From NCBI GenBank assembly GCA_051886215.1, contig JBJEXX010000038.1:341-64340 (forward strand): DNA of 64,000 nucleotides, read 5' to 3'. This stretch comes from Bacilli bacterium. Its GTDB lineage: Bacteria; Bacillota_I; Bacilli_A; RF39; UBA660. Of this stretch, positions 1 to 59,073 are shown piece by piece. The position numbers were made by a program, and so were the translations under genes. Numbering within the stretch: position 1 is the first letter of the stretch; each line of letters opens with the position of its first letter. Below the pieces are notes generated by a model. It was given only the letters and a program-made list of their open reading frames with translations. It was not told the origin of the DNA and made no database searches.

Positions 1-29
1 TTCCACATATCCAGGTGTGTCATTTTTAT

Positions 30-60
30 TATTAAATATAGTTTTGCCCTAAAGCAAAAC
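30..60 (-). terminator. possible weak stem-loop downstream of the 146-aa ORF
   Basis: Inverted repeat GTTTTGC-N6-GCAAAAC at 41-60. The minus-sense RNA has only a poor U-tract after it. Confidence 0.3.
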
Positions 61-136
61 AATTTAACCAACATTGATACTATATCATTATGATATTCCT
101 TTGTCAATAAAAATATACAAAATTTATAAAAAAAGA

Positions 137-577
137 TTATTCAGCAAAAGAACTAGAATAACCTTCACTTATATAATAATCACCACATTTAATATACGGG
201 GTAACATTCACCACATTATCATATGTAATTTTTGCATATCCATCACAACTTACTTGTCCATCAGTTAATACATTTAAATAATCCAATGCAATTAATTTTT
301 TAGAAGTTACGTACATAGGATCTTTATCATTAAAATCTGGGTAATATTCTTTTTGATATAAAGCAGCAGCGGTTTTTAAATTTTTTTCTATAGAACTATA
401 ATCAAAATCACTTTTATCATTATCTTTATATTCTGTACCATCATTAGGATTTAATAAAGGATTATCTCTATCGTCCAAATGCATATTATGAACAATTAAT
501 GAGATAACTATTAACAAAACAATAAAAATCCCCATAAAGAAAAACATATTTGATATTCCAAATCCTCTATTTTTCAT
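137..577 (-). CDS. hypothetical small membrane-anchored protein
   Basis: 146-aa ORF with an AGGTGAT Shine-Dalgarno just upstream of the ATG. Hydrophobic N-terminus (MFFFMGIFIVLLIVISLIV) followed by a polar domain. No family recognised. Confidence 0.55.
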   Translation of the reverse strand: MKNRGFGISNMFFFMGIFIVLLIVISLIVHNMHLDDRDNPLLNPNDGTEYKDNDKSDFDYSSIEKNLKTAAALYQKEYYPDFNDKDPMYVTSKKLIALDYLNVLTDGQVSCDGYAKITYDNVVNVTPYIKCGDYYISEGYSSSFAE

Positions 578-610
578 TTACATCACCTAATAATAGTATA
601 CTCTAAAACA

Positions 611-649
611 TAAAAAAAAGAAAGAAAAAGGAATAAGTTTCCTTATTCC
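611..649 (-). terminator. intrinsic terminator of rpoC
   Basis: Minus-sense GGAATAAGG-AAA-CTTATTCC hairpin overlapping the rpoC stop codon, followed by TTTTTCTTTCTTTTTTTT. Confidence 0.8.
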
Positions 650-3600
650 ATAAATTTATCTTCTAAAGCATCTATTGGTTCATCTTCCAATAATTCACTA
701 GCTAAATCATAGTCAACGTTTTGATAAGCCTTTATACCAGTACCTGCTGGGATAAGCTTACCAATAATAACATTTTCTTTTAATCCAACTAAATGATCTG
801 TTTTTCCACGTATTGCAGCATCAGTTAAGATTCTTGTTGTTTCTTGGAATGATGCAGCAGATAAGAATGAATCAGTTTCAAGTGAAGCTTTTGTTATACC
901 TAGAAGTACTGGCCTACCTGTAGCAGGTTTTTTACCATTAATAATAGCTTGTTTATTTTCTCTAGTAAAGTCATGTATATTTACTAAAGATCCTGGAATA
1001 AACATAGTTCCACCATTATCAACAATTCTCATCTTAGAAATCATTCTACGTGCGATAACTTCAACGTGTTTATCAGAAATATCAACACCTTGTGAACGAT
1101 ATGCATATTGTATTTCTTTTAATATGTATTCTTGTGTAGTAACTGGATCGGTAACAGCTAATAATTCTTTAGGACTAATTGCACCTTCTGTCAACTTATC
1201 ACCTGCTGCTACAACATCTCCTACTTCTACACGTAATTTAGAACCATAATTTGTAACATGTTCTTTAGATTCAACTTTATTTTTAATTGTAATTTTATAT
1301 TTACCATGTTCTTCGTTAACTTTAGTGATTTTACCATCGATTTCAGCAATTGTAGCTTTTCCTTTAGGAATACGTGCTTCGAATAATTCTTGTACACGAG
1401 GAAGACCTTGTGTAATATCTTCTCCACCAGCAACTCCTCCAGTATGGAAAGTACGCATTGTAAGCTGAGTACCTGGCTCACCAATAGATTGAGCAGCCAT
1501 AACACCGATTGCTTCACCAACCTCAACAACATTTCCAGTTGCAAGATTACGTCCATAACATTTTTGACAAACGCCATTAATAGTATTACATGTAAGAATA
1601 GATCTAATTTCTACTTCTTCTATTCCTGCTTTTATTATCTTATCGGCAATTTGTTCAGTTATATATTGAAGCTTATCAGCAATTACTTCACCAGTTTCAG
1701 GATTGATTATCTTCTTATTAGTAAATCTACCAACAATTCTATCATATAATCCTTCTATTACAGCACCATTCTTATCATTAACGAAGGTTTTTACTACAAA
1801 TCCATTTTCAGTTCCACAATCTTCTTCTTTAACGATTATATCTTGACTTACATCAACTAAACGTCTTGTTAAGTAACCTGAATCTGCAGTTTTTAATGCT
1901 GTATCGGCACTACCTTTACGAGATCCATGACTTGATAAGAAGAATTCAGATACTGATAATCCTTCTTTAAATGAAGATAATACTGGGATTTCTACAGACT
2001 CACCATTTGGTTTAGCCATTAATCCACGCATACCAGCAACTTGAGTAAAGTTTGAAATATTACCACGAGCACCAGAATGCATCATCATAAATATTGGATT
2101 ATCTAAATCAGAATCCGCAATAACTTGTAATTCTTTTTGAACTTCGTCTTTAGCTTTGTTCCATGTTTCAATTACTTTTTCATATCTTTCTTCTTCAGTA
2201 ATTAAACCACGTTTATATTGTTTATTAATAGTATCTACTACTTTTTGATGTTCCGCAACTATTGCATCTTTATTATTACATCCAATAACGTCACTCATAG
2301 AAACTGTAATTCCGGCAATTGTAGAATATTTAAATCCTAAATCTTTTAAATCATCCAAGAATATTGAAGTTTCTGTAGTTTTATAACGTTTAAATATTTG
2401 AGCAATAATTTTTTCTAATATTTTCTTAGCAAATGGTTTTACTAATTCCATAGAAGTGATTGCTTCTGGTATGTTAGTGCCCTTTTCTAAGAAATATTTA
2501 TTAGGTGTAATATTTTGAATATTATCATCAGTAGGTTCATTTATATAAGCAAATGAATCTGGTAAAATTTCATTAAATTTAATCTTACCAACAGTAGTAA
2601 CTAAATATTTACCTTTTTGACTATCAGTAAATAATTTATGTTTAAATGAATCAACTGGAATAGCAATTCTTGTATGTAATGTTATTTCTTTTCTTTCATA
2701 TGCCATTAAAGCTTCATTAACATCCTTAAATACTCTTCCTTCTCCAGGAAGGCCAGCCTTTTCCATTGTAATATAATAATTACCTAAAACCATATCTTGA
2801 CTTGGTGTAACAATAGGATCACCACTAGATGGTTTCAAAATATTATTAGCACCTAGCATTAACATTCTAGCTTCAGCTTGAGCTTCTTCAGATAATGGAA
2901 CGTGTACTGCCATTTGGTCTCCATCAAAGTCAGCATTAAATGCTGTACAAACTAATGGATGCAAACGAATTGCTTTTCCACCAACTAATTTAGGTTCAAA
3001 TGCTTGAATACCTAATCTATGAAGTGTAGGAGCACGGTTTAATAATACTGGATGTTCTTTAATAACATCTTCAACAATGTCCCAAACTTTTGGATCACGA
3101 TTATCAATTAATCTCTTAGCAGCTTTAATATTATGCGCTATATCACGAGAAACTAAACCATGAATAACATGGGGTTTAAATAATTCAAGTGCCATTTCTT
3201 TTGGTAATCCACATTGATACATTTTTAAGTTTGGTCCTACAACGATAACACTACGACCAGAATAATCAACGCGTTTACCTAATAAGTTTTGACGGAAACG
3301 ACCTTGTTTACCTTTTAACATACTAGAAAGTGATTTTAAAGCACGATTTCCAGCACCAGTAACACTTCTACCACGTCTTCCATTGTCAAATAGAGCGTCA
3401 ACTGCTTCTTGTAACATACGTTTTTCATTTTGAATAATGATTGTAGGAGCACCTAAATCTATTAATTTTTTCAAACGATTGTTACGATTAATAACACGTC
3501 TATATAAATCATTTAAATCACTAGTAGCGAATCTTCCACCATCAAGTTGTAACATTGGACGAAGATCTGGAGGTATTACAGGAATACAATCCAAAATCAT

Positions 3601-4275: not shown

Positions 4276-7200
4276 TAGTCTTCATCTCCTTCCATAACAG
4301 CTTCTTCAAAATCGCTATCATCATAATCTTCTTCATCATCTTCGTAATCGTCTATGTCATCTTCTTCACTAACAGTTGGCTCTTCAGGTAAAGGTTGAAC
4401 TTCCTCTACTGGAGTAAAATCATCTTTATACTCTTCTTCTTCTACTTGTTTTAAATCTAGTAAATTATTTTCATCATCTACTATACCTACATCAAGTCCT
4501 AATGCTTGGAACTCTTTCATAAGAACTCTAAACGATTCAGGAACTCCTGCGTGATTTATTTCTTGTCCTTTTACTAAAGCTTCATATACTTTAACACGAC
4601 CTAAAATATCATCAGATTTAACTGTCAACATTTCTTGTAATGTATGAGCAGCACCATATGCATATAATGCCCAAACTTCCATTTCTCCAAATCTTTGACC
4701 ACCGAATTGAGCTTTACCACCAAGTGGTTGTTGTGTAACTAATGAATAAGGTCCTGTTGAACGAGCATGTAACTTATCATCAACCATATGGTGAAGTTTA
4801 ATCATATACATAACTCCAACAGCAATTCTATTATCAAATGGTTCTCCAGTACGTCCATTATATAGTACTGTCTTTCCATCTGGATCCATTCCAGCTTCTG
4901 CCATCATTTCTTGAACGTCTTCCAAGCTAGCTCCATCAAATACTGGAGTTGCAACATGAACACCTAATTTTTTAGCGGCCATACCTAAATGTAATTCTAA
5001 AATTTGACCTAAGTTCATACGAGATGGAACACCTTGTGGATTTAACATGATATCAACAGGAGTACCATCAGCCATATATGGCATATCTTCTTGAGGAAGA
5101 ATAAGTGAAATAACACCTTTGTTACCATGACGTCCAGACATCTTATCTCCAACTTGAATCTTACGTTTTTGTGCAATATATACACGAATTACTTTTGAAA
5201 CACCTGCTGGTAATTCATCATTATCTTTTCTAGAGTAAATTTTAATATCATGAACAATACCTTCAGCACCATGAGGTACTCTTAATGAAGTATCTCTAAC
5301 TTCACGAGTCTTTTCACCAAATATTGCATGTAATAATTTTTCTTCTGAAGTAAGTTCTGCCATACCTTTAGGAGTAACTTTACCAACTAAGATATCTCCT
5401 TCTTTAACTTCTGTACCAATAACAACAATACCATTTTCATCCAAATTACGTCTAGCTTCATCACTAACATTTGGAATATCTCTTGTTATTTCTTCAGGTC
5501 CTAACTTAGTTTCACGACATTGAATTTGATAATCTTCTAAGTGAATAGAAGTATAAACATCATCTTTAACTATTTTTTCATTTAATATAACTGCATCTTC
5601 ATAGTTATAACCATCAAATGTCATAAATGCTACAGTAACATTTTTACCTAAAGCAAGTTCTCCTTGATCTGTACTTGGAGCATCAGCAAGAACAAAACCG
5701 CGTTTTACTTTATCCCCTACTTTAACACAAGGTCTTTGATGGAAACTTGTATCTGAGTTACTTTCTTCAAAGTTTGCAAGTAAGTATGTATCTTCTCCAC
5801 CTTTAGTTTTTACCACTACTTTTCTAGAGTCAACATATTCAACTACACCATCAGCTTTACAAACAACTACTTCTCCACTATCACGAGCTGCAACAAACTC
5901 AACTCCAGTACCAACAAGTGGTGCCTCAGATTTTAAAAGTGGAACTGCTTGACGTTGCATGTTAGCACCCATCAATGCACGAGTAGCATCATCGTGTTCC
6001 AAGAAAGGAATACAACTTGTTGTAACAGATACTACTTGTTGTGGAGAAACATCAACATAATCAACCTGTTCAGGTTTTACCATTATATTTTCTCCTCTAA
6101 AACGAGCAGTAACTAATTTATCTATTATTTTATTATCTTCATCTGTATTAACAGTAGCTTGACTAATCATAAAATCTGCTTCTTCATCTGCAGTTAAATA
6201 GTCAACTTGATCTGTTATAACACAATCATTAACTTTTCTATATGGAGTCATTATAAATCCATACTCATCAACTTTTGCATAACTTGCTAAAGAAGTAATC
6301 AAACCTATATTTTGTCCTTCTGGAGACTCAATAGGACATATTCTACCATAGTGAGAAGCATTAACGTCACGTACTTCCATTCCGGCTCTATCACGAGACA
6401 AACCTCCTGGTCCTAAAGCAGATAAACGTCTTTTATTAGTTAACTCAGCTATTGGATTCATTTGATCCATAAATTGAGATAATTGACTACTACCAAAGAA
6501 TTCTTTCATAGCAGCAGTAACAGGTCTAATATTTATCAAAGTCTTAGGAGTGATTTCATCTGTTTCTTGAGTAGTCATTCTTTCGCGAATAACTCTTTCC
6601 ATTCTTGAAACACCAATTCTAAATTGATTTTGTAATAATTCTCCAACTTGACGAATACGTCTATTTCCTAAATGATCAATTTCATCAAAATTACCAACAC
6701 CATTTAATAAATTTAAATAGTAAGAAACAGAAGCATAAACATCTGATATAGTTAATCTCTTTTCAGTAATAGTTTGATCATTACCAATTAGAGTAATCTT
6801 ATTCTTTTTATTACCTGGTTCATATATTTTTAAAGTTTGAACTTTTCCATAAGTATCTAATTCACTATTAATAGTAACTTCTTTTACATTATAACCATCT
6901 TTAAAAATATCTTTTAATTGTTCTAAAATGTCCTTAGTAATTAAAGTCCCTTTAGCAACAACAACTTCACCATTAACCTTTATATCTTCAGCAAGAACTT
7001 GATTTAAAGCTCTTTCTAATACATTTAACTTACGATTAAATTTATAACGACCAACACGCGCTAAATCATATCTAAATTCATCAAAGAATCTAGTGATAAT
7101 TTGGTTTTTAGAAGAATCTAATGTAGCTGGTTCTCCTGGTCTTAATTTTTCATAAATCTCTATTAGAGCTTCATCTGTATTTTTAGTTGAGTCTTTTGCT

Positions 7201-9917: not shown

Positions 9918-10071
9918 AAAACACCTCCTTATTTATATTCGGGATGCCATAAAAAATTCCTAGTCATAGACTAGGAACTTTATATACTAAAAGTATGTCC
10001 TCGGTAGGATTTATTTGTATACCTACTGTCTATGGCACCAACAAAACAACATTATTGTATACTATTATTTA
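9918..10071 (-). promoter_or_regulatory. L10-leader-like 5-prime UTR with terminator-type attenuator upstream of rplJ
   Basis: 154-nt untranslated gap between rplA and rplJ. It has a long-range helix GGTGCCAT...ATGGCATCC. A perfect 9-bp hairpin TTCCTAGTC-TAT-GACTAGGAA (9957-9977) is followed by TTTTTT just before the AAGGAGGTG Shine-Dalgarno. The position matches the Firmicute L10(L12)4 autoregulatory leader. Confidence 0.6.
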
Positions 10072-12374: not shown

Positions 12375-12998
12375 TTATGTGTTAGTAATAACAAAAATAA
12401 CAATCATAAATAATATTAAAACAGCTGCCATAACAAAAACTACAGGAACACTTATAAAAGCTGCTTTATTAAACACCTCTGAACTATCATCATTACTTAA
12501 CATAGCTCCTACACTAGTAGCCTTTACTAAATTTTTACTATTAGAAATACCATTTTGTTCCTTCTTCACAGCATCTATATATTCATGATAATATACTACA
12601 TCATTGTTTTTATATAAATTATAAAAATAATTATAATCAATATCATTATATGAATATTTAAAATTCTCTACTACTTCTTTTAAATAATTTTCAGAAAAAA
12701 GCATATCTGAATTGAATAAATTACTCTTATTTATATATATATTAGTAAGTAATGATGCATAATTATATATATTAGACTTAATAACTTCATCTTTTATATC
12801 AGGACGTACTTTATTTACTCTAAATATAAATTCATTGCTTTTATCATCAAATACTATTTTATCAGATCTAAAATCAGTTATATAGTAACCACTATCATGA
12901 AGTTTTTTCATCGAATGCGACATTTTATAAAAATATTTCAATAAATCATCATTATCATTTGTATAGGTACATAATGTTTTTAAATCTATCTCTTTCAT
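12375..12998 (-). CDS. hypothetical tail-anchored membrane protein with kinase catalytic-loop-like remnant
   Basis: The ORF has a GGTGA Shine-Dalgarno before the ATG at 12998 (the track ORF starts at 13010). A single C-terminal TM helix is present (FISVPVVFVMAAVLILFMIVIFVI). The segment LHDSGYYITDFRSDKIVF aligns by eye with the kinase LHxxGxxHRDLKPxNIL loop, but no N-lobe or DFG is present. Confidence 0.5.
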   Translation of the reverse strand: MKEIDLKTLCTYTNDNDDLLKYFYKMSHSMKKLHDSGYYITDFRSDKIVFDDKSNEFIFRVNKVRPDIKDEVIKSNIYNYASLLTNIYINKSNLFNSDMLFSENYLKEVVENFKYSYNDIDYNYFYNLYKNNDVVYYHEYIDAVKKEQNGISNSKNLVKATSVGAMLSNDDSSEVFNKAAFISVPVVFVMAAVLILFMIVIFVITNT

Positions 12999-12999
12999 A

Positions 13000-14289
13000 T
13001 TATTCACCATAACGTTCCACTGTTAATCTATAATTATTATTTTCTTTATTAACAGTTAAAGCTTTTGAATAAACTAAATAATTTTTTATATTAATATCTA
13101 TATTACCACCAACAACTTCTGTCTTATTAACATTAGTAATATCTTTATAAAATTCTCCATTTATATATATTTCTTTAATTACTTCTTCACCTTTTACATT
13201 ATTTTCTACTACTACTTTTTTTCTTTTAATTATTGTAATTGTATAAGATTTATTATTTTCGATAGTATACTCATCAACTAAATCACCAATTTTTAATACT
13301 CCATTTACTAAATGAATATTTACATCTCCTGTTTCTAAGATATTAATATCGCCACTAGAACTTAAAACTTTGAATGAAGTTGATACAGTATATACCTCCA
13401 TAGAAGAAGTATCATAACTAAATCCTGTATTAGTTGCATTAGTTAACTTAGTATCCAAAAATTTATCATTCCATGTATAATTACTGAAACCACTGATATC
13501 TAAATTGTTATTATTACCACTTAAATCATACCATGAATTAGTTGTATCGCTATGACCATCACTTGTATTGTTAATAGCATCATACCAAACCAATAATGAA
13601 TCAGTTTCATATGTATTTGTATTTTCACCCGCTACTGTAATCTTACCAAAATAATATTTTCCAGTTAAACTACCATCCTCATTTTTGATAAAAATATCAT
13701 TTGAAGCATCAGCTTTAATCCAGACCCTTACAGATATTTTTTTCTTTTCTCCTGGTTGTAGTTTACCATTTAATAATTCATAGTCCTTTGTTGCCAAACT
13801 TTCTAATATAACAGGACTATTACCATTTACACTTACTTTTAAATCATTTTTATTTAATAATTTTTCACTCATTTCAGCATCTGTTTTTTCTTCTCCATTT
13901 ATTACTGCAGTATCATCTAATAATTTCACAGAATAAGTAGATGCTAAACTACCAGTGTTTTGAATATAAAATGTATATGCTTTTGATTTTAAACCTTCTT
14001 CATCACTAATAGGATAACTATTGACTAATGATATAGCTCCAGATTCTTCTTGATAATCGATATGCAAATCACCCACATTTACACCATTAAAATCTTCTGT
14101 TTTATTAATTGATGAAAATACTGCATACGTAGTACCAAACATTACTAAAAGCACAACGAAAACAGATGCCATCATCACACGAGTTTGTTGTTTCATAGTT
14201 TTTGTAAAAAAATATTTTCTACTTTTACTTTTAACAGTCTTGGCATTATTATCTAAATAATACTTTTTTCTATCTTTCCATGTTTTCAT
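13000..14289 (-). CDS. secreted/surface protein with SipW-type (TasA/camelysin-like) signal region and C-terminal LamG-like domain
   Basis: GGTGAT+AAT+ATG start at 14289 (the track ORF starts at 14313). The N-terminal TM ends in GTTYAVFSS, resembling the TasA/CalY signal GTFAFFSD. The block FYIQNTGSLAS resembles TasA FENNGSLA. C-terminal WYDLSGNNNN ... YINGEFY ... VYSKALT matches LamG/concanavalin-like hallmarks. Confidence 0.6.
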   Translation of the reverse strand: MKTWKDRKKYYLDNNAKTVKSKSRKYFFTKTMKQQTRVMMASVFVVLLVMFGTTYAVFSSINKTEDFNGVNVGDLHIDYQEESGAISLVNSYPISDEEGLKSKAYTFYIQNTGSLASTYSVKLLDDTAVINGEEKTDAEMSEKLLNKNDLKVSVNGNSPVILESLATKDYELLNGKLQPGEKKKISVRVWIKADASNDIFIKNEDGSLTGKYYFGKITVAGENTNTYETDSLLVWYDAINNTSDGHSDTTNSWYDLSGNNNNLDISGFSNYTWNDKFLDTKLTNATNTGFSYDTSSMEVYTVSTSFKVLSSSGDINILETGDVNIHLVNGVLKIGDLVDEYTIENNKSYTITIIKRKKVVVENNVKGEEVIKEIYINGEFYKDITNVNKTEVVGGNIDINIKNYLVYSKALTVNKENNNYRLTVERYGE

Positions 14290-43062: not shown

Positions 43063-43084
43063 AATTATTTCCCGGGAAATAATT
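43063..43084. promoter_or_regulatory. Noc-binding site (NBS) copy 1
   Basis: AATTATTTCCCGGGAAATAATT, with palindromy extending to 26 bp (43061-43086). The core 43066-43081, TATTTCCCGGGAAATA, equals the B. subtilis NBS consensus. It lies between the rsmI stop and the pth Shine-Dalgarno. Confidence 0.8.
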
Positions 43085-47346: not shown

Positions 47347-48996
47347 CTATTCATATTCAACAATATCTCTACCAAATATTATATCAGCTTGTACCTCATT
47401 TGCGCTACTGTTTTTTTTCTCTTCCCTCTCAATAATAGAGGAATCATCTTGTAATTTATAAGTATAACCTTCTTTCGTTTTCTTAATATACTCAGTTTTT
47501 TCTTTTTGCCATTGTTTCTTAGTAACAAAAGCAATATAAATTTCTATTCCTAACAGTTTTTCTATTGATTTTATTAATTCATCATACAATTGTAATGCAC
47601 GATTAACCAAAGACTCATACATAAAACTTAATATTACATATTTATCGCCGACCGCACATATTTCAGCATCAAGTAAAAAAGATACATTACTACCATAATT
47701 ACTATCTAAAACAAATTCATTTAATTTGCTCCACATATTCTTAAAATCATTCAATTTACTTTTAGAAGCTGTTGCAAAAGTATTATTTATAATAATATCA
47801 TTATGAACAATAACTGTGTTTGTTTTTTTATTTTCTGACTTTTCTACTTTATTATTATTATCTACTTTTTTCATAGAATCTTTATCAACAGAAACTTTGT
47901 TTTTATTTAACGAACTTGTATCTGTAAATATATTATTTTCATTTAATTTTTTTTCTTTAGTTGTATTATTAAATTCATCTTTGTTTAACATTTCTTTAGC
48001 AATCAATGCAATTGATATACCTCTAGGATTAGTAGAAGTTTTTAAAACATTACAAACTTCATTTAAGACCTCAATATAACGAACAATATTTCGTATCTTT
48101 TTTTTGTCTTCAATATCATTTATCAAACATTCTCGTAAATAATCAATTATTTGAGAAAAGAATACAGATAAATTTATTCCAGTAAGATATTTTTTATCAA
48201 TAATATTAACTACATTTTCAATATTATTTTCAAACAAATCACTTGTAAAATTTTCAATATCTTCATTACTAACAAAACCGCAAAGTTTATCAAAATCTTC
48301 AATTGTTATGTTGTTACCAAACAAACTCACCTTTTCTAGCATACCTATAGCGTCACGCATACCACCATTACAATATGTAGCGATTTTATATAAAATTTTA
48401 TCATCAACCATAATTTTTTCTTGCGACGCTATATACTTTAAATTACTAACAATATCTTCAATAGATATTTGTGTAAAATTATAACATTGACACCTAGATT
48501 TTATAGTTAACGGAACCTTCTGTGGATCTGTAGTTGCTAGAATAAAAATGATATGTTGTGGTGGTTCTTCTAAAGTTTTTAATAGAGCATTAAATGCACC
48601 AGTTGATAACATATGAACTTCATCAATAATATATACTTTATATTTTAAAGAAGAACAAGCTAATTTAATATTATTTCTTAATTCACGTATTTCATCCACT
48701 CCATTATTAGATGCCGCATCTATTTCAATGATATCCACAGCATTATTATTATTTATTTCTAAACAATTAGAACATTGTTCGCAGGAAACACCATCTTTCA
48801 TATTTAAACAATTAACAGTTTTAGCAAAAACCTTAGCAGTAGTTGTTTTTCCTGTTCCTCTTGGACCGCTGAATAAATAAGCATGTGATATTTTATTATT
48901 AATAATAGAGTTTTTTAAAATTTTTACAATAAAATTTTGTCCAACTATTCTCTCAAAAGTATCAGGACGATATTTTCTGTATAGAGATTGATACAT
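47347..48996 (-). CDS. dnaX: DNA polymerase III subunits gamma/tau
   Basis: MYQSLYRKYRP start at 48996, 6 nt after a GGGGGA Shine-Dalgarno (the track ORF starts 2 codons earlier). Walker A GPRGTGKTT, a zinc module (CxxCxxC) and DEVHML. Confidence 0.95.
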   Translation of the reverse strand: MYQSLYRKYRPDTFERIVGQNFIVKILKNSIINNKISHAYLFSGPRGTGKTTTAKVFAKTVNCLNMKDGVSCEQCSNCLEINNNNAVDIIEIDAASNNGVDEIRELRNNIKLACSSLKYKVYIIDEVHMLSTGAFNALLKTLEEPPQHIIFILATTDPQKVPLTIKSRCQCYNFTQISIEDIVSNLKYIASQEKIMVDDKILYKIATYCNGGMRDAIGMLEKVSLFGNNITIEDFDKLCGFVSNEDIENFTSDLFENNIENVVNIIDKKYLTGINLSVFFSQIIDYLRECLINDIEDKKKIRNIVRYIEVLNEVCNVLKTSTNPRGISIALIAKEMLNKDEFNNTTKEKKLNENNIFTDTSSLNKNKVSVDKDSMKKVDNNNKVEKSENKKTNTVIVHNDIIINNTFATASKSKLNDFKNMWSKLNEFVLDSNYGSNVSFLLDAEICAVGDKYVILSFMYESLVNRALQLYDELIKSIEKLLGIEIYIAFVTKKQWQKEKTEYIKKTKEGYTYKLQDDSSIIEREEKKNSSANEVQADIIFGRDIVEYE

Positions 48997-49019
48997 AAGC
49001 ATTCCCCCGTTCTATAAAA

Positions 49020-49048
49020 ATTATATCATTTTTATTTTTTAAAGTAAA
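49020..49048 (-). promoter_or_regulatory. candidate sigma-A promoter for dnaX
   Basis: TTTACT, 17-bp spacer, extended -10 TGaTATAAT on the minus strand. NBS copy 2 begins 8 bp upstream of the -35. Confidence 0.5.
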
Positions 49049-49058
49049 TTTTTAAAAT

Positions 49059-49080
49059 AATTATTTCCCGGGAAATAATT
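49059..49080. promoter_or_regulatory. Noc-binding site (NBS) copy 2
   Basis: AATTATTTCCCGGGAAATAATT, in a 26-bp palindrome at 49057-49082. The core is 49062-49077. It overlaps the tadA stop codon. Confidence 0.8.
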
Positions 49081-49498
49081 ATCTTCTAACAAAGAAAAAA
49101 GAATTTAATATTTTAGAGCATTTTTTACTTAAAAAATACTTTTTTATCCTTTTTTTTAATAATTTTTCACATATTTCATTATATAATATATCATTATTTC
49201 TAGTACCTATATATATTTTTTTTAAATTATACATAAATATTGTTCCAGAACACATAGGGCAAGGTATTAAAGTAGTATATAAAAATATAGAATTTAATTT
49301 ATTTTTATCTACTTTTTTCAAACATTCTATTTCAGCATGATAAAATTCATTTTTTTCTTTTGATTTTTGATTTTTTTCTTTTACCAAAATATTTTTTTTA
49401 TCAGTTATTATACTTCCTACTGGAACATTATTATTTAAAAAAGCAATTAAACTTTCTTTATATGCACTTTGTAAATAAAAAACATCATTATTTTTCAT
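49079..49498 (-). CDS. tadA: tRNA-specific adenosine deaminase (CDA fold)
   Basis: 139 aa with HAEIECL and PCPMCSG zinc-binding motifs. Its position next to dnaX matches B. subtilis yaaJ/tadA. Confidence 0.8.
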   Translation of the reverse strand: MKNNDVFYLQSAYKESLIAFLNNNVPVGSIITDKKNILVKEKNQKSKEKNEFYHAEIECLKKVDKNKLNSIFLYTTLIPCPMCSGTIFMYNLKKIYIGTRNNDILYNEICEKLLKKRIKKYFLSKKCSKILNSFFFVRR

Positions 49499-49511
49499 AT
49501 TTCACCTACTA

Positions 49512-49593
49512 TAAAAAAATGACGCACATAAATCAAATTATTAAGGCTGCTATTTTCCAATCCTGACCTGGTTCTAATTCTTTTTATTGCGTC
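49512..49593 (-). ncRNA. ffs: signal recognition particle RNA, minimal 4.5S type
   Basis: Minus-sense GACGCA...ACCAGGUCAGGAUUGGAAAAUAGCAGCCUUAA...UGCGUC. This matches the domain IV consensus ACCAGGUCAGGUCCGGAAGGAAGCAGCC, with a compensatory UCC/GGA to AUU/AAU change around the GGAA tetraloop. The terminal helix is GACGCA/UGCGUC, followed by a U7 tract. It has its own promoter. Confidence 0.85.
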
Positions 49594-49600
49594 GATATAT

Positions 49601-49629
49601 ATATTACTATAGAATATGTATTTAATCAA
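49601..49629 (-). promoter_or_regulatory. candidate sigma-A promoter for the SRP RNA gene
   Basis: TTGATT, 17-bp spacer, TAATAT on the minus strand. The predicted +1 falls at the G of the GACGCA terminal helix (49593). Confidence 0.6.
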
Positions 49630-49639
49630 GATTTTTTTA

Positions 49640-49655
49640 TGTTTCACGTGAAACA
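49640..49655. promoter_or_regulatory. parS site 1 (ParB/Spo0J centromere-like site)
   Basis: TGTTTCACGTGAAACA is a perfect palindromic parS consensus. The symmetry extends to 18 bp (49639-49656). It lies 10 bp upstream of the ffs -35. Confidence 0.88.
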
Positions 49656-49682
49656 TTGATTAATTTTTATTATTGTCTACTA

Positions 49683-49698
49683 CGTTTCACGTGAAACA
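49683..49698. promoter_or_regulatory. parS site 2
   Basis: CGTTTCACGTGAAACA matches the parS consensus at 15/16 positions, differing only at the outermost base. Confidence 0.85.
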
Positions 49699-49710
49699 TA
49701 ATAGAAATAT

Positions 49711-49744
49711 CAAATAAAAATGAATGTTTCACGTGAAACATTCA
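49711..49744 (-). terminator. intrinsic terminator of gyrA formed by parS site 3
   Basis: Minus-sense UGAAUGUUUCACGUGAAACAUUCA (24-nt palindrome, 49721-49744) starts immediately after the gyrA TAA stop. It is followed by UUUUUAUUUG. Confidence 0.7.
49725..49740. promoter_or_regulatory. parS site 3
   Basis: TGTTTCACGTGAAACA is a perfect consensus, embedded in the 24-bp palindrome TGAATGTTTCACGTGAAACATTCA. Confidence 0.88.
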
Positions 49745-52186
49745 TTATTCTATAGGTGTTTCTTCTTCTGTTTCTATAACTTTAACTTTTGTTACAGAAG
49801 AAACCATTTGATTATCTTTCAAATTTATTAATCTTACACCTTGTGTAGCCCTTTTTAATGTAGATACCTGTTGTAAACTAATTCTTATAATAATACCACT
49901 ATTAGTTATAATCATAATATCATCATTATCATCAACACATTGTAATGTAACCATTTTTCCATTTTTATCGGTAATATTTAGGGCTTTTACACCTTTACTT
50001 CCTCTATGTGTTAATCTAAATTCATTAATTTCTGTCTTTTTACCATAACCTTTTTCAGTTACAATTAAAACTTTAGCATTTTCATTACTAACAACTTCCA
50101 TTCCAACAACATTATCTGTATTAATATTAAAGTCGATTCCTTTTACACCAGAAGCTGTTCTACCCATATTTCTTATTTCTGTTTCATTAAACCTAACCAT
50201 TCTACCATTAGTAGCACCTATTATAATCTCATCAGATCCACTTGAAGCCTTAACAGAAATTAGTTCATCATCTTCTCTCAAGGTAATTGCAATTTTACCA
50301 CTTGTTCTAATATTATCAAATTCCGCTATAGAAGTTCTCTTTACTACACCTTTTTTAGTACAGAATACAAAATAATTTTTATTATCATCTTTTGATCCAG
50401 TAATAACAGTAGTTATTTTTTCATCTTTATCTAAAGACAATAAATTAACAATAGGTAAACCTTTAGATTGTCTACTATATTCAGGTACCTTATAACCCTT
50501 AATTCTATAAACTCTACCTTTATTACTAAAGAAGTATGCAAAATCATGAGTTTTCATAGATATTAAATGTTCTACATAATCTTCTTCATTTGTAGACATT
50601 CCTTTAATACCAACACCACCACGATTTTGAGATTTAAATGTATTCTCCACAACTCTCTTAATGTAACCATTATGTGTTAATGTTAAAATAACATTTTCAA
50701 CAGGTATTAAAGACTCATCTTCTATATATTCAATAGCCGTCATATCAATATTTGTTCGACGTTCATCACCGAACTTTTGTTTTATTTCTAATAATTCTTT
50801 TTTAATTACTGCTAAAACATTTGCGTCACTTGATAAGATAGTCTTTAATTCATCAATTAATTTAAGCAATTCATCAAGTTCATTTTCTATTTTTTCTCTT
50901 TCTAATCCAGTTAAGCGACGTAATCTCATTTCTAAAATTGCGTTTGCTTGGGCTTCTGATAATTTAAAATTATTCATTAAACCACTTCTGGCTTCGTCAT
51001 CTGATTTAGAACCACGAATTAATTTAATAACAGCGTCAATATTATCTAAAGCAATCTTTAATCCTTCTAATATGTGTACTCTTTTTTCAGCAACATCTAA
51101 ATCAAACTTAGTTCTTCTTATTATAACTTCTTTTTGATAATCGATATATTTTACGATTATATCTTTTAAACATAACGTTTTTGGAACACCTTGATCTAAC
51201 ATTAAAAATATTATTCCATAACTAGTTTGTAAAGAAGTATGTTTATATAACTTATTAAGAACAACTTGAGCATTTGCATCTTTTTTTAGAGTGATAGTAA
51301 TTTTAATACCATCTTTCAAATCAGAATGATAATCTGCAATACCCTCAATCGTCTTATTATGAACAAGTTCGGCAACTTTATTTTTTAATTCCAATGTATT
51401 TACACCATATGGAACTTCATCAATTATTATATATTGTCTACCATTTTTTTCCTCTATAGAAGCTTTACTTCTAATAGTAATAGAACCACGACCAGTCTCA
51501 TAAGCCTTTCTAATTCCACTATTACCCAATATACTAGCACCTGTTGGAAAATCTGGACCTTTTATATATTCCATTAATCCATCTAAATCAATTTCTGGAT
51601 TATCTATGTATGCAACGCATCCATCAATTACTTCTCCTAAATTATGAGGAGGAATATTAGTAGCCATACCAACCGCTATACCAGTAGTTCCATTTACTAA
51701 AATATTAGGAAAACGTGAAGGTAAAACTTCTGGTTCTTTTTCACTTTCATCAAAATTAGGTGTAAAATCAACTGTATTTTTATTTATATTTCTTAATAAT
51801 TCTAAAGATATTTTTGAAAGACGAGATTCTGTATAACGCATTGCGGCAGCACCATATCCTTCAATATTACCAAAATTACCATGTCCATCAACAAGCATAT
51901 ATCTATAAGAAAAATCTTGTGCCATTCTAACCATAGCTTCATATATACTAGAATCACCATGTGGATGATATTTACCCATTACATCTCCGACAATTCTAGC
52001 ACTTTTTTTATGAGGTTTATCAGGGGTATATCCAGATTCATACATAGAATATAAAATTCTACGATGAACAGGTTTTAATCCATCTCTTAAATCTGGAAGA
52101 GCACGTGCTACTATAACACTCATTGAATATTCCAAAAAGGAATCTTGTACTTCTTTTACTATATTATTTTTTTCTAGTCTATCCAT
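49745..52186 (-). CDS. gyrA: DNA gyrase subunit A
   Basis: 813 aa with the active-site region AAMRYTE, a QRDR-like [13 protein letters not shown] and a C-terminal beta-pinwheel. Confidence 0.98.
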
Positions 52187-55321: not shown

Positions 55322-55359
55322 AAATAAAAAAGGTCAAAAATTTAACATTTTTGCCTTTT
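55322..55359 (-). terminator. intrinsic terminator after the comK-like gene
   Basis: Minus-sense AAAGGCAAAAAU-GUUAA-AUUUUUGACCUUU hairpin (one bulge) containing the stop codon, followed by UUUAUUUG. Confidence 0.7.
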
Positions 55360-55788
55360 TCTTAATAGGGATTCTAGTCTAGTCGCACGAAATATTTGAT
55401 TTTCAATTATTCTAAATGAAGAAGGGACTACTATTTTCTTATTATTTGAAAAATATATTATTGTTTTTAGGGATTTTTTTTCTATTTTTTCTATATTATT
55501 TAGTGATAACCATATACAAGAATCGAGGAAGGGTGATTCGGTTGGGAAAAAAATTAATGATTTACTTTCTTCAATTACTATAGGTAGTTTATAACTAGCT
55601 CCTAAAATATGTTTGCTACCTAATCTTCTACCTTCGTATGTACTCCCATAATACATACAACTATTATCCATTATTTCTGTGCAACTACCATTATATTCAA
55701 AAGTTGATTCTTTTTCATATACCATAACACTATTTTCATTTATTGGAACTAATGCTAAAGTATCTTCTGTAATTTCGTAAGTGTCCAT
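55342..55788 (-). CDS. comK: ComK-family transcription factor
   Basis: 148 aa. Aligns by eye along the ComK core of B. subtilis (YEI...TLALVP, SC.YYGSTYEGRR, YKLPIVIEES, LIFFPTESP, W.S, ENQIFRA). GGGGGA Shine-Dalgarno. Confidence 0.78.
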   Translation of the reverse strand: MDTYEITEDTLALVPINENSVMVYEKESTFEYNGSCTEIMDNSCMYYGSTYEGRRLGSKHILGASYKLPIVIEESKSLIFFPTESPFLDSCIWLSLNNIEKIEKKSLKTIIYFSNNKKIVVPSSFRIIENQIFRATRLESLLRKRQKC

Positions 55789-58548: not shown

Positions 58549-58891
58549 TTCCCCACCTGAATTTATAAGATTAATAACAATTTTATTGTAAAATAATTTT
58601 TCTAAAAAATAAAGCTATTTTCTAAAAAATATTGTTATAAACAACTTATTAACAAGGTTATCAACAACTATTTTCTATGAAATATAAGAAAAAAACTAAC
58701 TTATCAACAAATTTGTTTACTTTATATAATAAACAAGGTTAATAAAATTATCAACATAATTGTGAAAAATGTTAATAACTTTTTAAAGTCATAATATATA
58801 TATAAATAAAAATAATGTTTATTAACAATAAGTGTGAATAAATAAAAAAACAAAAAAAGTTATTGTTAATAATTTTTTTTTTGCTAATTTG
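58549..58891. other. oriC, dnaA-upstream DnaA-box cluster
   Basis: TTATCAACA occurs three times (58658-58666, 58701-58709, 58748-58756). TTATTCACA is on the opposite strand (58833-58841). TTATTAACA/TTATAAACA variants lie at 58635, 58646, 58770, 58819 and 58864. An (AT)n/A-rich tract spans 58793-58817. The gene-strand switch occurs here. Confidence 0.8.
58598..58631. repeat. two 14-bp direct repeats TTTTCTAAAAAATA, 20 bp apart, within oriC
   Basis: Identical copies at 58598-58611 and 58618-58631, between the dnaA start and the first DnaA boxes. Confidence 0.7.
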
Positions 58892-58920
58892 TTGACAAAA
58901 TAATATAATTTTATTACAAT
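58892..58920 (+). promoter_or_regulatory. candidate sigma-A promoter for rpmH-rnpA
   Basis: TTGACA, 17-bp spacer, TACAAT, preceded by a T10 tract (58873-58882) in the UP-element position. Confidence 0.6.
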
Positions 58921-58949
58921 AAATGAGATTTATGTCTGGAGGTGGAATT

Positions 58950-59072
58950 ATGAAAAGACCTTATCAACCAAATAATAGAAAAAAATCAAAAAAGATGGGC
59001 TTTTTTGCAAGAATGAAAAATAAAATTGTTGCAAGACGCCGTAGAAAAGGACGCAAAAGGTTATCTAAATAA
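58950..59072 (+). CDS. rpmH: 50S ribosomal protein L34
   Basis: Not in the ORF track because it is too short. Sequence [40 protein letters not shown] (40 aa), with a GGAGGTGG Shine-Dalgarno. Upstream of rnpA. Confidence 0.92.
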
Positions 59073-59073
59073 T

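Follow-up and report, generated by a model that had tools for sequence, protein, structure and literature searches.

Most of the strong parS sites of B. subtilis lie within genes, and in sopC of the F plasmid tandem units of 43 bp carry one SopB site each. In Caulobacter crescentus, parS1-7 are located ~8 kb from ori, with five strong sites within 5 kb and sites 3 and 4 within 260 bp (PMC5815017), and P. aeruginosa has the clustered sites parS1-4 (PMC5815017, PMC4368675), of which one was found to suffice for segregation (PMC4368675). The strong parS sites of B. subtilis are single and 5-39 kb apart (PMC5815017), as was correctly stated in the first-pass annotation of the locus described here (single sites, kilobases apart). 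The clustering of parS is recognised (PMC7333895, PMC5815017) and its cause was put forward as an open question (PMC7333895). The core sequence of the B. subtilis parS was confirmed from PMC8429893, and the methods of the same paper give TATTTCCCGGGAAATA as the core of the Noc-binding site (NBS) of B. subtilis; NBS are known to be scattered around the chromosome (PMC7383237).

We analysed a 64-kb stretch of DNA (hereafter the window) from an uncultured low-GC Bacilli lineage. Three parS sites, which together span 101 bp, lie in the gap that separates gyrA from the gene for the small SRP RNA (ffs; Table 1). All three match the 16-bp palindromic parS consensus TGTTNCACGTGAAACA, two of them at 16 and one at 15 of the 16 positions, with a start-to-start spacing of 43 and 42 bp, which reproduces exactly what the first-pass annotation had read in this gap. 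A perfect palindrome of 26 bp (ATGAATGTTTCACGTGAAACATTCAT) is centred on site 3, and site 2 lies, on the minus strand, inside a longer imperfect palindrome. With up to three mismatches allowed on both strands, the window holds five parS matches where 0.29 were expected (dinucleotide-preserving shuffles). Two of the five lie elsewhere, with three mismatches each, and beyond the trio no parS with at most two mismatches was found in the 64 kb, which span oriC. The exact consensus, the origin-proximal position and the conservation at the same locus while the spacers diverge (see below) all argue for the Firmicute parS identity that had been proposed. We regard the array as a true cluster of parS sites that very probably serves the chromosome as its ParB loading centromere (with a rough probability of 0.85); the gap between gyrA and ffs would then be the conserved home of the putative centromere in this lineage. 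In addition, A and T (A...T) flank each of the 40 parS sites at the clade loci, which makes the effective motif an 18-bp palindrome, ATGTTNCACGTGNAACAT.

Table 1. Positions of features in the window and in related contigs (numbered within each sequence; GyrA, amino acid identity to the GyrA of the window)
Sequence	Feature	Positions	Strand	Description
Window	parS site 1, nearest ffs	49640-49655	.	TGTTTCACGTGAAACA, perfect, 16/16
Window	parS site 2	49683-49698	.	CGTTTCACGTGAAACA, 15/16, mismatch at the outermost base
Window	parS site 3, nearest gyrA	49725-49740	.	TGTTTCACGTGAAACA, perfect, 16/16
Window	18-bp versions of sites 1, 2 and 3	49639-49656, 49682-49699, 49724-49741		
Window	gyrA	49745-52186	-	NCBIfam NF004043, 1169 bits
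Window	Intrinsic-terminator-like hairpin for gyrA	49709-49746	-	Stem around parS site 3
Window	Hairpin stem	49746-49719	-	12 pairs, overlaps the TAA stop of gyrA by 2 nt
Window	Hairpin tail	49718-49709	-	TTTATTTGAT, on the gyrA strand
Window	Putative SRP RNA promoter	49601-49629	-	TTGATT-17 nt-TAATAT; sequence reading and aligned relatives
Window	Small SRP RNA gene (ffs)	49507-49603	-	Rfam RF00169, 57.9 bits
Window	Perfect NBS	49062-49077	.	TATTTCCCGGGAAATA; tadA/dnaX, 563 bp from the array
Window	Perfect NBS	43066-43081		pth/next gene
Window	Perfect NBS	61039-61054		jag/mnmE
Window	Perfect NBS	62478-62493		mnmE/mnmG
Window	dnaA	57157-58548	-	
Window	Probable oriC	58549-59126	.	dnaA upstream region, DnaA-box-like sites, GC-skew sign change
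Window	DnaA-box-like sites (four)	58658-58841		Upstream of dnaA; TTATCAACA (three) and TTATTCACA (one)
Window	148-aa ORF	55342-55788	-	Between dnaN and recF
Window	T-box leader	37525-37725	-	Rfam, 133.5 bits
Window	Ribosomal protein L10 leader	9942-10053	-	Rfam, 53.7 bits
L131	Array			GyrA 92%; 2 parS
L135	Array			GyrA 91%; 2 parS; parS-NBS-parS
L135	Second parS pair	6086-6164		tadA/dnaX gap
L136	Array	5453-5604		GyrA 90%; 4 parS; parS-NBS-parS-parS-parS
L002	Array	12450-12630		GyrA 90%; 4 parS; parS-parS-NBS-parS-NBS-parS
L003	Array	12517-13002		GyrA 82%; 6 parS alternating with five NBS
L005	Array			GyrA 81%; 4 parS
L193	Alternating parS/NBS array	1-663		
L008	Noc-like gene	12584-13891		rsmG/parA interval
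L010	Noc-like gene	12605-13921		rsmG/parA interval

The genes around the array are all located on the minus strand, and in the order of transcription the region reads dnaA, dnaN, an ORF of 148 aa, recF, gyrB, gyrA, the array, the SRP RNA gene, a gene for a TadA-like deaminase, dnaX, ybaB and recR. On the other side of oriC we found rnpA, yidC, jag, mnmE and mnmG, the last of which runs past the end of the window. The window carries standard-code ORFs at ~26% GC. The GC skew changes sign at ~58-60 kb, and this switch together with the cluster of DnaA-box-like sites upstream of dnaA confirms a distance of 9 kb between the array and oriC, as had been estimated. The three TTATCAACA boxes are on the same strand, 43-47 bp apart, and represent a variant, not the canonical TTATCCACA. 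The 148-aa ORF has no NCBIfam match and its orthologues in all relatives are annotated with the Pfam ComK domain (PF06338), a conserved yet unusual place for a ComK-like gene, within the dnaA operon region. The T-box leader and the ribosomal protein L10 leader are ordinary elements and unrelated to the array.

The locus was compared with contigs fetched via GyrA homologues of the window. All of the relatives studied, with a GyrA identity of 48-92%, carry a parS array in the corresponding gap, between gyrA and ffs/tadA/dnaX, for instance the six relatives with a GyrA identity of 81-92% listed in Table 1, and in L051, a species-representative MAG (GyrA 69%), this position holds a parS pair. The SRP RNA gene follows the array in all seven (L131, L135, L136, L002, L003, L005 and L051). 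The spacers are largely unalignable among relatives and the parS 16-mers are intact. The comparison of related genomes that the first-pass annotation called for thus placed an array at this locus in every relative, and showed that neither the 42-43 bp phasing nor the number of three is kept: even relatives with a GyrA identity of 90-92% have two to four sites, 37-62 bp apart, in the six relatives of Table 1 the spacing ranges from 37 to ~300 bp, and over all relatives the site number varies from 2 to 12. Site number is fluid in evolution and changes as sites are lost or duplicated in tandem. In the relatives' 22-kb loci from gyrB over oriC and parB to dnaB, the parB gene included, no parS was found even at three mismatches. 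Since the array is the only parS cluster in 64 kb and this stretch of the relatives has none, the earlier suggestion that it is the main centromere appears plausible, although other contigs of the MAG may carry additional parS. The whole gyrA-dnaX zone can host sites, beyond the one gap: L135 has a second parS pair in the tadA/dnaX gap, where the window carries an NBS, and L092 has parS sites 3' of ffs and around dnaX.

The first-pass annotation also considered a tight array to be unusual, and here we came to a different view. In a scan of 185,579 species-representative genomes, we looked for pairs of parS cores with 15-45 bp between them (pairs 29-59 bp apart) and found at least 120 such loci across many phyla. 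Among the matches listed are Actinomycetota (including Streptomyces), Alpha-, Beta- and Gammaproteobacteria, Bacteroidota, Planctomycetota, Acidobacteriota, Clostridia, Negativicutes and others, and most of the listed pairs adjoin parAB, mnmG, rsmG, dnaA or gyrB. At 18 of the 118 listed loci outside the clade (the two clade loci left out), at least three sites follow one another at gaps of at most 110 bp, and at 15 of these, among the matches listed, the gaps are at most 60 bp. Examples are L084 with five sites at 33-35 bp, Cohaesibacter with spacings of 42/47/49 bp, a Christensenellaceae MAG with 40/42 bp and Collinsella with 39/39 bp. A tight parS cluster is an ordinary kind of feature. The commonness of such pairs and triplets across phyla bears on the question why parS sites cluster (PMC7333895). 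Nor does a stronger hub follow from the site count, since a single parS suffices in P. aeruginosa.

Inside the 64-kb window no ParB or Noc gene was found, and the contig, which is 65,574 bp long, stops ~1.2 kb past mnmG. Beyond the window, a 6.7-kb Logan contig was the only match to the exact MnmE and the exact MnmG was unmatched, and ParB was therefore studied in relatives, on contigs reached via MnmG homologues (82-87% identical). Past the position of the window's end these contigs carry rsmG, a ParB-like gene (435-438 aa), ParA, ParB (292-293 aa) and DUF951, with ParB and ParA encoded ~5 kb past that position. The best match of the 293-aa ParB is B. subtilis Spo0J (6sdk, E = 5e-64), and the protein has the motifs GERR and ENLQRE and an N-terminal LGRGL (the ParA-interaction motif). 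The first-pass annotation had made its reading depend on a parB/spo0J gene in the genome; this was borne out for close relatives, which do encode a Spo0J-type ParB, and the window itself is without one. From the relatives and the perfect parS sites we infer that the source genome encodes a ParB as well. The 435-aa protein has the Noc structures 7ng0, 7nfu and 7ol9 as its best matches (E ~1e-57) and carries Noc-type residues in the recognition region (KSQ...ANKLRLL...ERHAR). This Noc-like protein, in L008 and L010, has no N-terminal amphipathic membrane helix, and its C-terminus is an acidic extension of ~215 aa, rich in E, D and P, with a small conserved domain at the end.

In the mechanism that we propose, ParB (Spo0J) dimers would bind specifically to the three parS palindromes, and a bound dimer would take CTP and close into a sliding clamp. 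The clamps would then diffuse onto the flanking DNA of gyrA/gyrB on one side and ffs/tadA/dnaX on the other, and an origin-proximal partition complex would result, on which ParA could act and which, as the same complex does in other Firmicutes, may load SMC. Three sites would mean three loading points in 101 bp, and a terminator at site 3 (see below) should stop RNA polymerase from running through them. ParB binding, clamp loading, spreading, SMC recruitment and termination activity are thus predicted, as is any benefit of having three sites or a spacing of 42-43 bp. If this reading is right, the array marks the most likely segregation grip point on the chromosome of an uncultured gut/rumen Bacilli lineage.

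A side finding was the association of the arrays with NBS. The window contains four perfect NBS, all intergenic, where 0.32 would be expected even at three or fewer mismatches. Within the array (49640-49740) no NBS with at most three mismatches was found, the nearest being the one between tadA and dnaX. The NBS pair that flanks mnmE is conserved in L008-L010. In most relatives, NBS interleave with parS in the gyrA-ffs gap itself (Table 1). A metagenome scan for the order parS-NBS-parS gave 66 contigs, of which 65 have a GC content of 20-31%; in these 65, the arrays lie between gyrA and tadA/dnaX wherever flanking genes are present, with GyrA 48-82% identical. Alternating arrays were seen in L193, L158, L160 and ~60 other metagenome loci, with up to ~10 sites of each kind. 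True tandem units were found in L193 (61 bp x 10.8) and L003 (95 bp x 3.5). For the array of the window a tandem-repeat origin was rejected, as TRF found no repeat in 49400-49900 and the spacers are mutually unrelated.

The parS-NBS distances in the clade were analysed after spacers less than 30% divergent had been collapsed, which left 145 clusters. These distances peak at 26, 35, 46-47 and ~59 bp, with troughs between, close to half-integer helical turns. For a periodicity of 10.5 bp the Rayleigh R is 0.40 (p ~1e-10, a value that overstates independence, as lengths may be inherited from common ancestors), and R is 0.53 when one parS-NBS pair is sampled per locus. Four evenly spaced peaks despite heavy spacer divergence are suggestive of a rotational constraint. 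Of the directly adjacent clade parS at up to 60 bp, 15 of 20 are spaced 39-43 bp, with a mode of 42 bp, and the 43 and 42 bp of the window fit this pattern. The phasing that the first-pass annotation had proposed is therefore found as a clade-level preference for 39-43 bp and not as strict conservation, as distances of 37 and 39 bp occur at a GyrA identity of 90-92%. The opposite view, of no conservation of phasing whatsoever, is too strong in the light of this preference and of the periodic parS-NBS distances. A universal helical phasing of adjacent parS was ruled out: 123 distances outside the clade, among the matches listed, were aperiodic (R = 0.12, p = 0.15).

These observations leave room for a wider reading, which we regard as possible, at clearly less than even odds, namely that the array of the window is an NBS-less member of a clade-wide composite ParB/Noc-like centromere, with two coupled clamps side by side. 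The half-integer-turn spacing would put ParB and the Noc-like protein on opposite faces of the DNA, and the arrays would have been amplified as tandem units of 61 or 95 bp. It would mean that two paralogous CTP-dependent clamps are loaded together and are physically or functionally coupled, and that a Noc-like protein without the known membrane helix has an origin-centred role instead of one in classical nucleoid occlusion. We found no description of interleaved parS/NBS arrays in the literature searched (full text, a limited collection). The alternating, periodic arrays and the helix-less Noc-like paralogue offer an opening for the study of ParB-family CTP clamps that share a loading zone.

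The position next to ffs raises the question whether ParB here mainly regulates the SRP RNA promoter and/or readthrough from gyrA, rather than marking a segregation centromere. Upstream of the putative ffs promoter, 10 bp separate its -35 element from the end of site 1. This promoter was not listed by a consensus promoter scan (score 8/12) and is proposed on the basis of its conservation: relatives repeat the TTGnnn-17-TAnTAT architecture, 6-7 nt ahead of a conserved CGACGC. The distance from the last parS to the Rfam start of the SRP RNA is 34-37 nt in the window, L002 and L051, which speaks for a regulatory role, but 50 nt in L003 and 69 nt in L005, while in L131 the promoter-proximal site is an NBS, not a parS, and the sites of L092 lie 3' of ffs. 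Moreover, regulation has no need of 3-12 sites, and neither the window nor the relatives' gyrB-dnaB stretch has another origin-proximal parS that could act as the centromere. We therefore consider a mainly regulatory role unlikely.

We also found an intrinsic-terminator-like hairpin for gyrA on parS site 3. It combines a stable stem-loop with a U-rich tail, just past the stop codon and on the sense strand. A terminator scan of 48900-50000 returned this single candidate, with 0.1 expected by chance, and the RNA fold has a free energy of -13.4 kcal/mol (z = -4.9). Six relatives share this terminator anatomy at their first parS past gyrA, with different outer-stem sequences (ATGAA/TTCAT, TAGA/TCTA, AGTAA/TTACT, GAGAA/TTCTT and GTATA/TATAC), and in L003 and L005 a separate terminator hairpin precedes the first parS. 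Over the six relatives, all 66 of 66 pair cells of the stem are paired, both sides change in 5 of 11 pairs, and cells with a double change number 10 against 2.8 in shuffles, a signal that a DNA palindrome gives equally under selection for an RNA hairpin or for DNA symmetry. We infer that parS site 3 doubles as the putative stem of the gyrA terminator, which would be a dual use in a compact AT-rich genome.

The same data could be taken to mean that these palindromes function first of all as hairpins, in RNA or in DNA, serving as terminators or insulators between gyrA and ffs, with an incidental or secondary likeness to parS. Site 3 has a complete terminator anatomy, and stable RNA folds are predicted at all three sites. 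In line with this, palindromes that reach at least 4 bp past the 16-mer are commoner than chance, both at the clade loci (12 of 40 parS sites against 2.1 expected) and in other phyla (37 of 290 against 2.5, among the matches listed, L011-L130), which suggests that intergenic parS sites commonly double as hairpins or terminators; nothing relevant on parS as terminators was found in the literature searched (full text, a limited collection). Yet variation is confined to the outer stem: the inner 16 bp never change and are identical to the ParB consensus, and a terminator would not need this exact sequence. Sites 1 and 2 are without a T tail on either strand, the relatives encode a Spo0J-type ParB, and arrays of up to 12 sites go far beyond what termination needs, so that a hairpin function as the primary one seems very improbable. 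It is harder still to believe that the array arose as an artefact of assembly, or that it represents a dispersed repeat of a generic kind or a miniature mobile element: the array of the window comes from a single MAG assembly, but no further copy was found in the 64-kb window or in ~40 kb of the relatives' origin regions (many equivalent arrays being what the first-pass annotation had thought would betray a generic repeat), there is no tandem unit beyond the 16-18-bp motif, the orthologous array of the relative with a GyrA identity of 92% (L131) is identical in four independent Logan assemblies, and the locus is conserved over dozens of independent metagenomes.

As a very probable ParB loading centromere, the locus resembles the clusters of Caulobacter and P. 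aeruginosa in the 16-bp consensus, in the distance of 8-9 kb from ori on one arm and in having several clustered high-affinity sites (with binding predicted here) near dnaA, gyrB or parAB. In contrast to these clusters, the sites occupy one intergenic gap of 101 bp, with none in parB or nearby genes, the locus is that of gyrA-ffs, and one site doubles as a putative terminator stem. With the Spo0J-parS system of B. subtilis, which also loads SMC, it shares the identical core TGTTTCACGTGAAACA, the closest match of the relatives' ParB (Spo0J) and the noc-soj-spo0J gene order, common to the clade relatives; it differs in its tight intergenic array and in that the relatives' gyrB-oriC-parB-dnaB region, parB gene included, is without parS. 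The site periodicity of ~43 bp recalls sopC of plasmid F, and so do the true tandem units of L193 and L003, whereas the array of the window is chromosomal and has unrelated spacers and no repeat unit, and the units of the relatives carry both parS and NBS. Finally, the Noc-NBS system of Bacillales is matched by perfect NBS cores in the window and its relatives and by a Noc-like paralogue in the noc position. Unlike in Bacillales, the NBS of the clade gather within the parS array, where they alternate with the parS sites (the array of the window being without NBS), and the paralogue differs from B. subtilis Noc by its missing N-terminal amphipathic helix and its ~215-aa acidic C-terminal extension.
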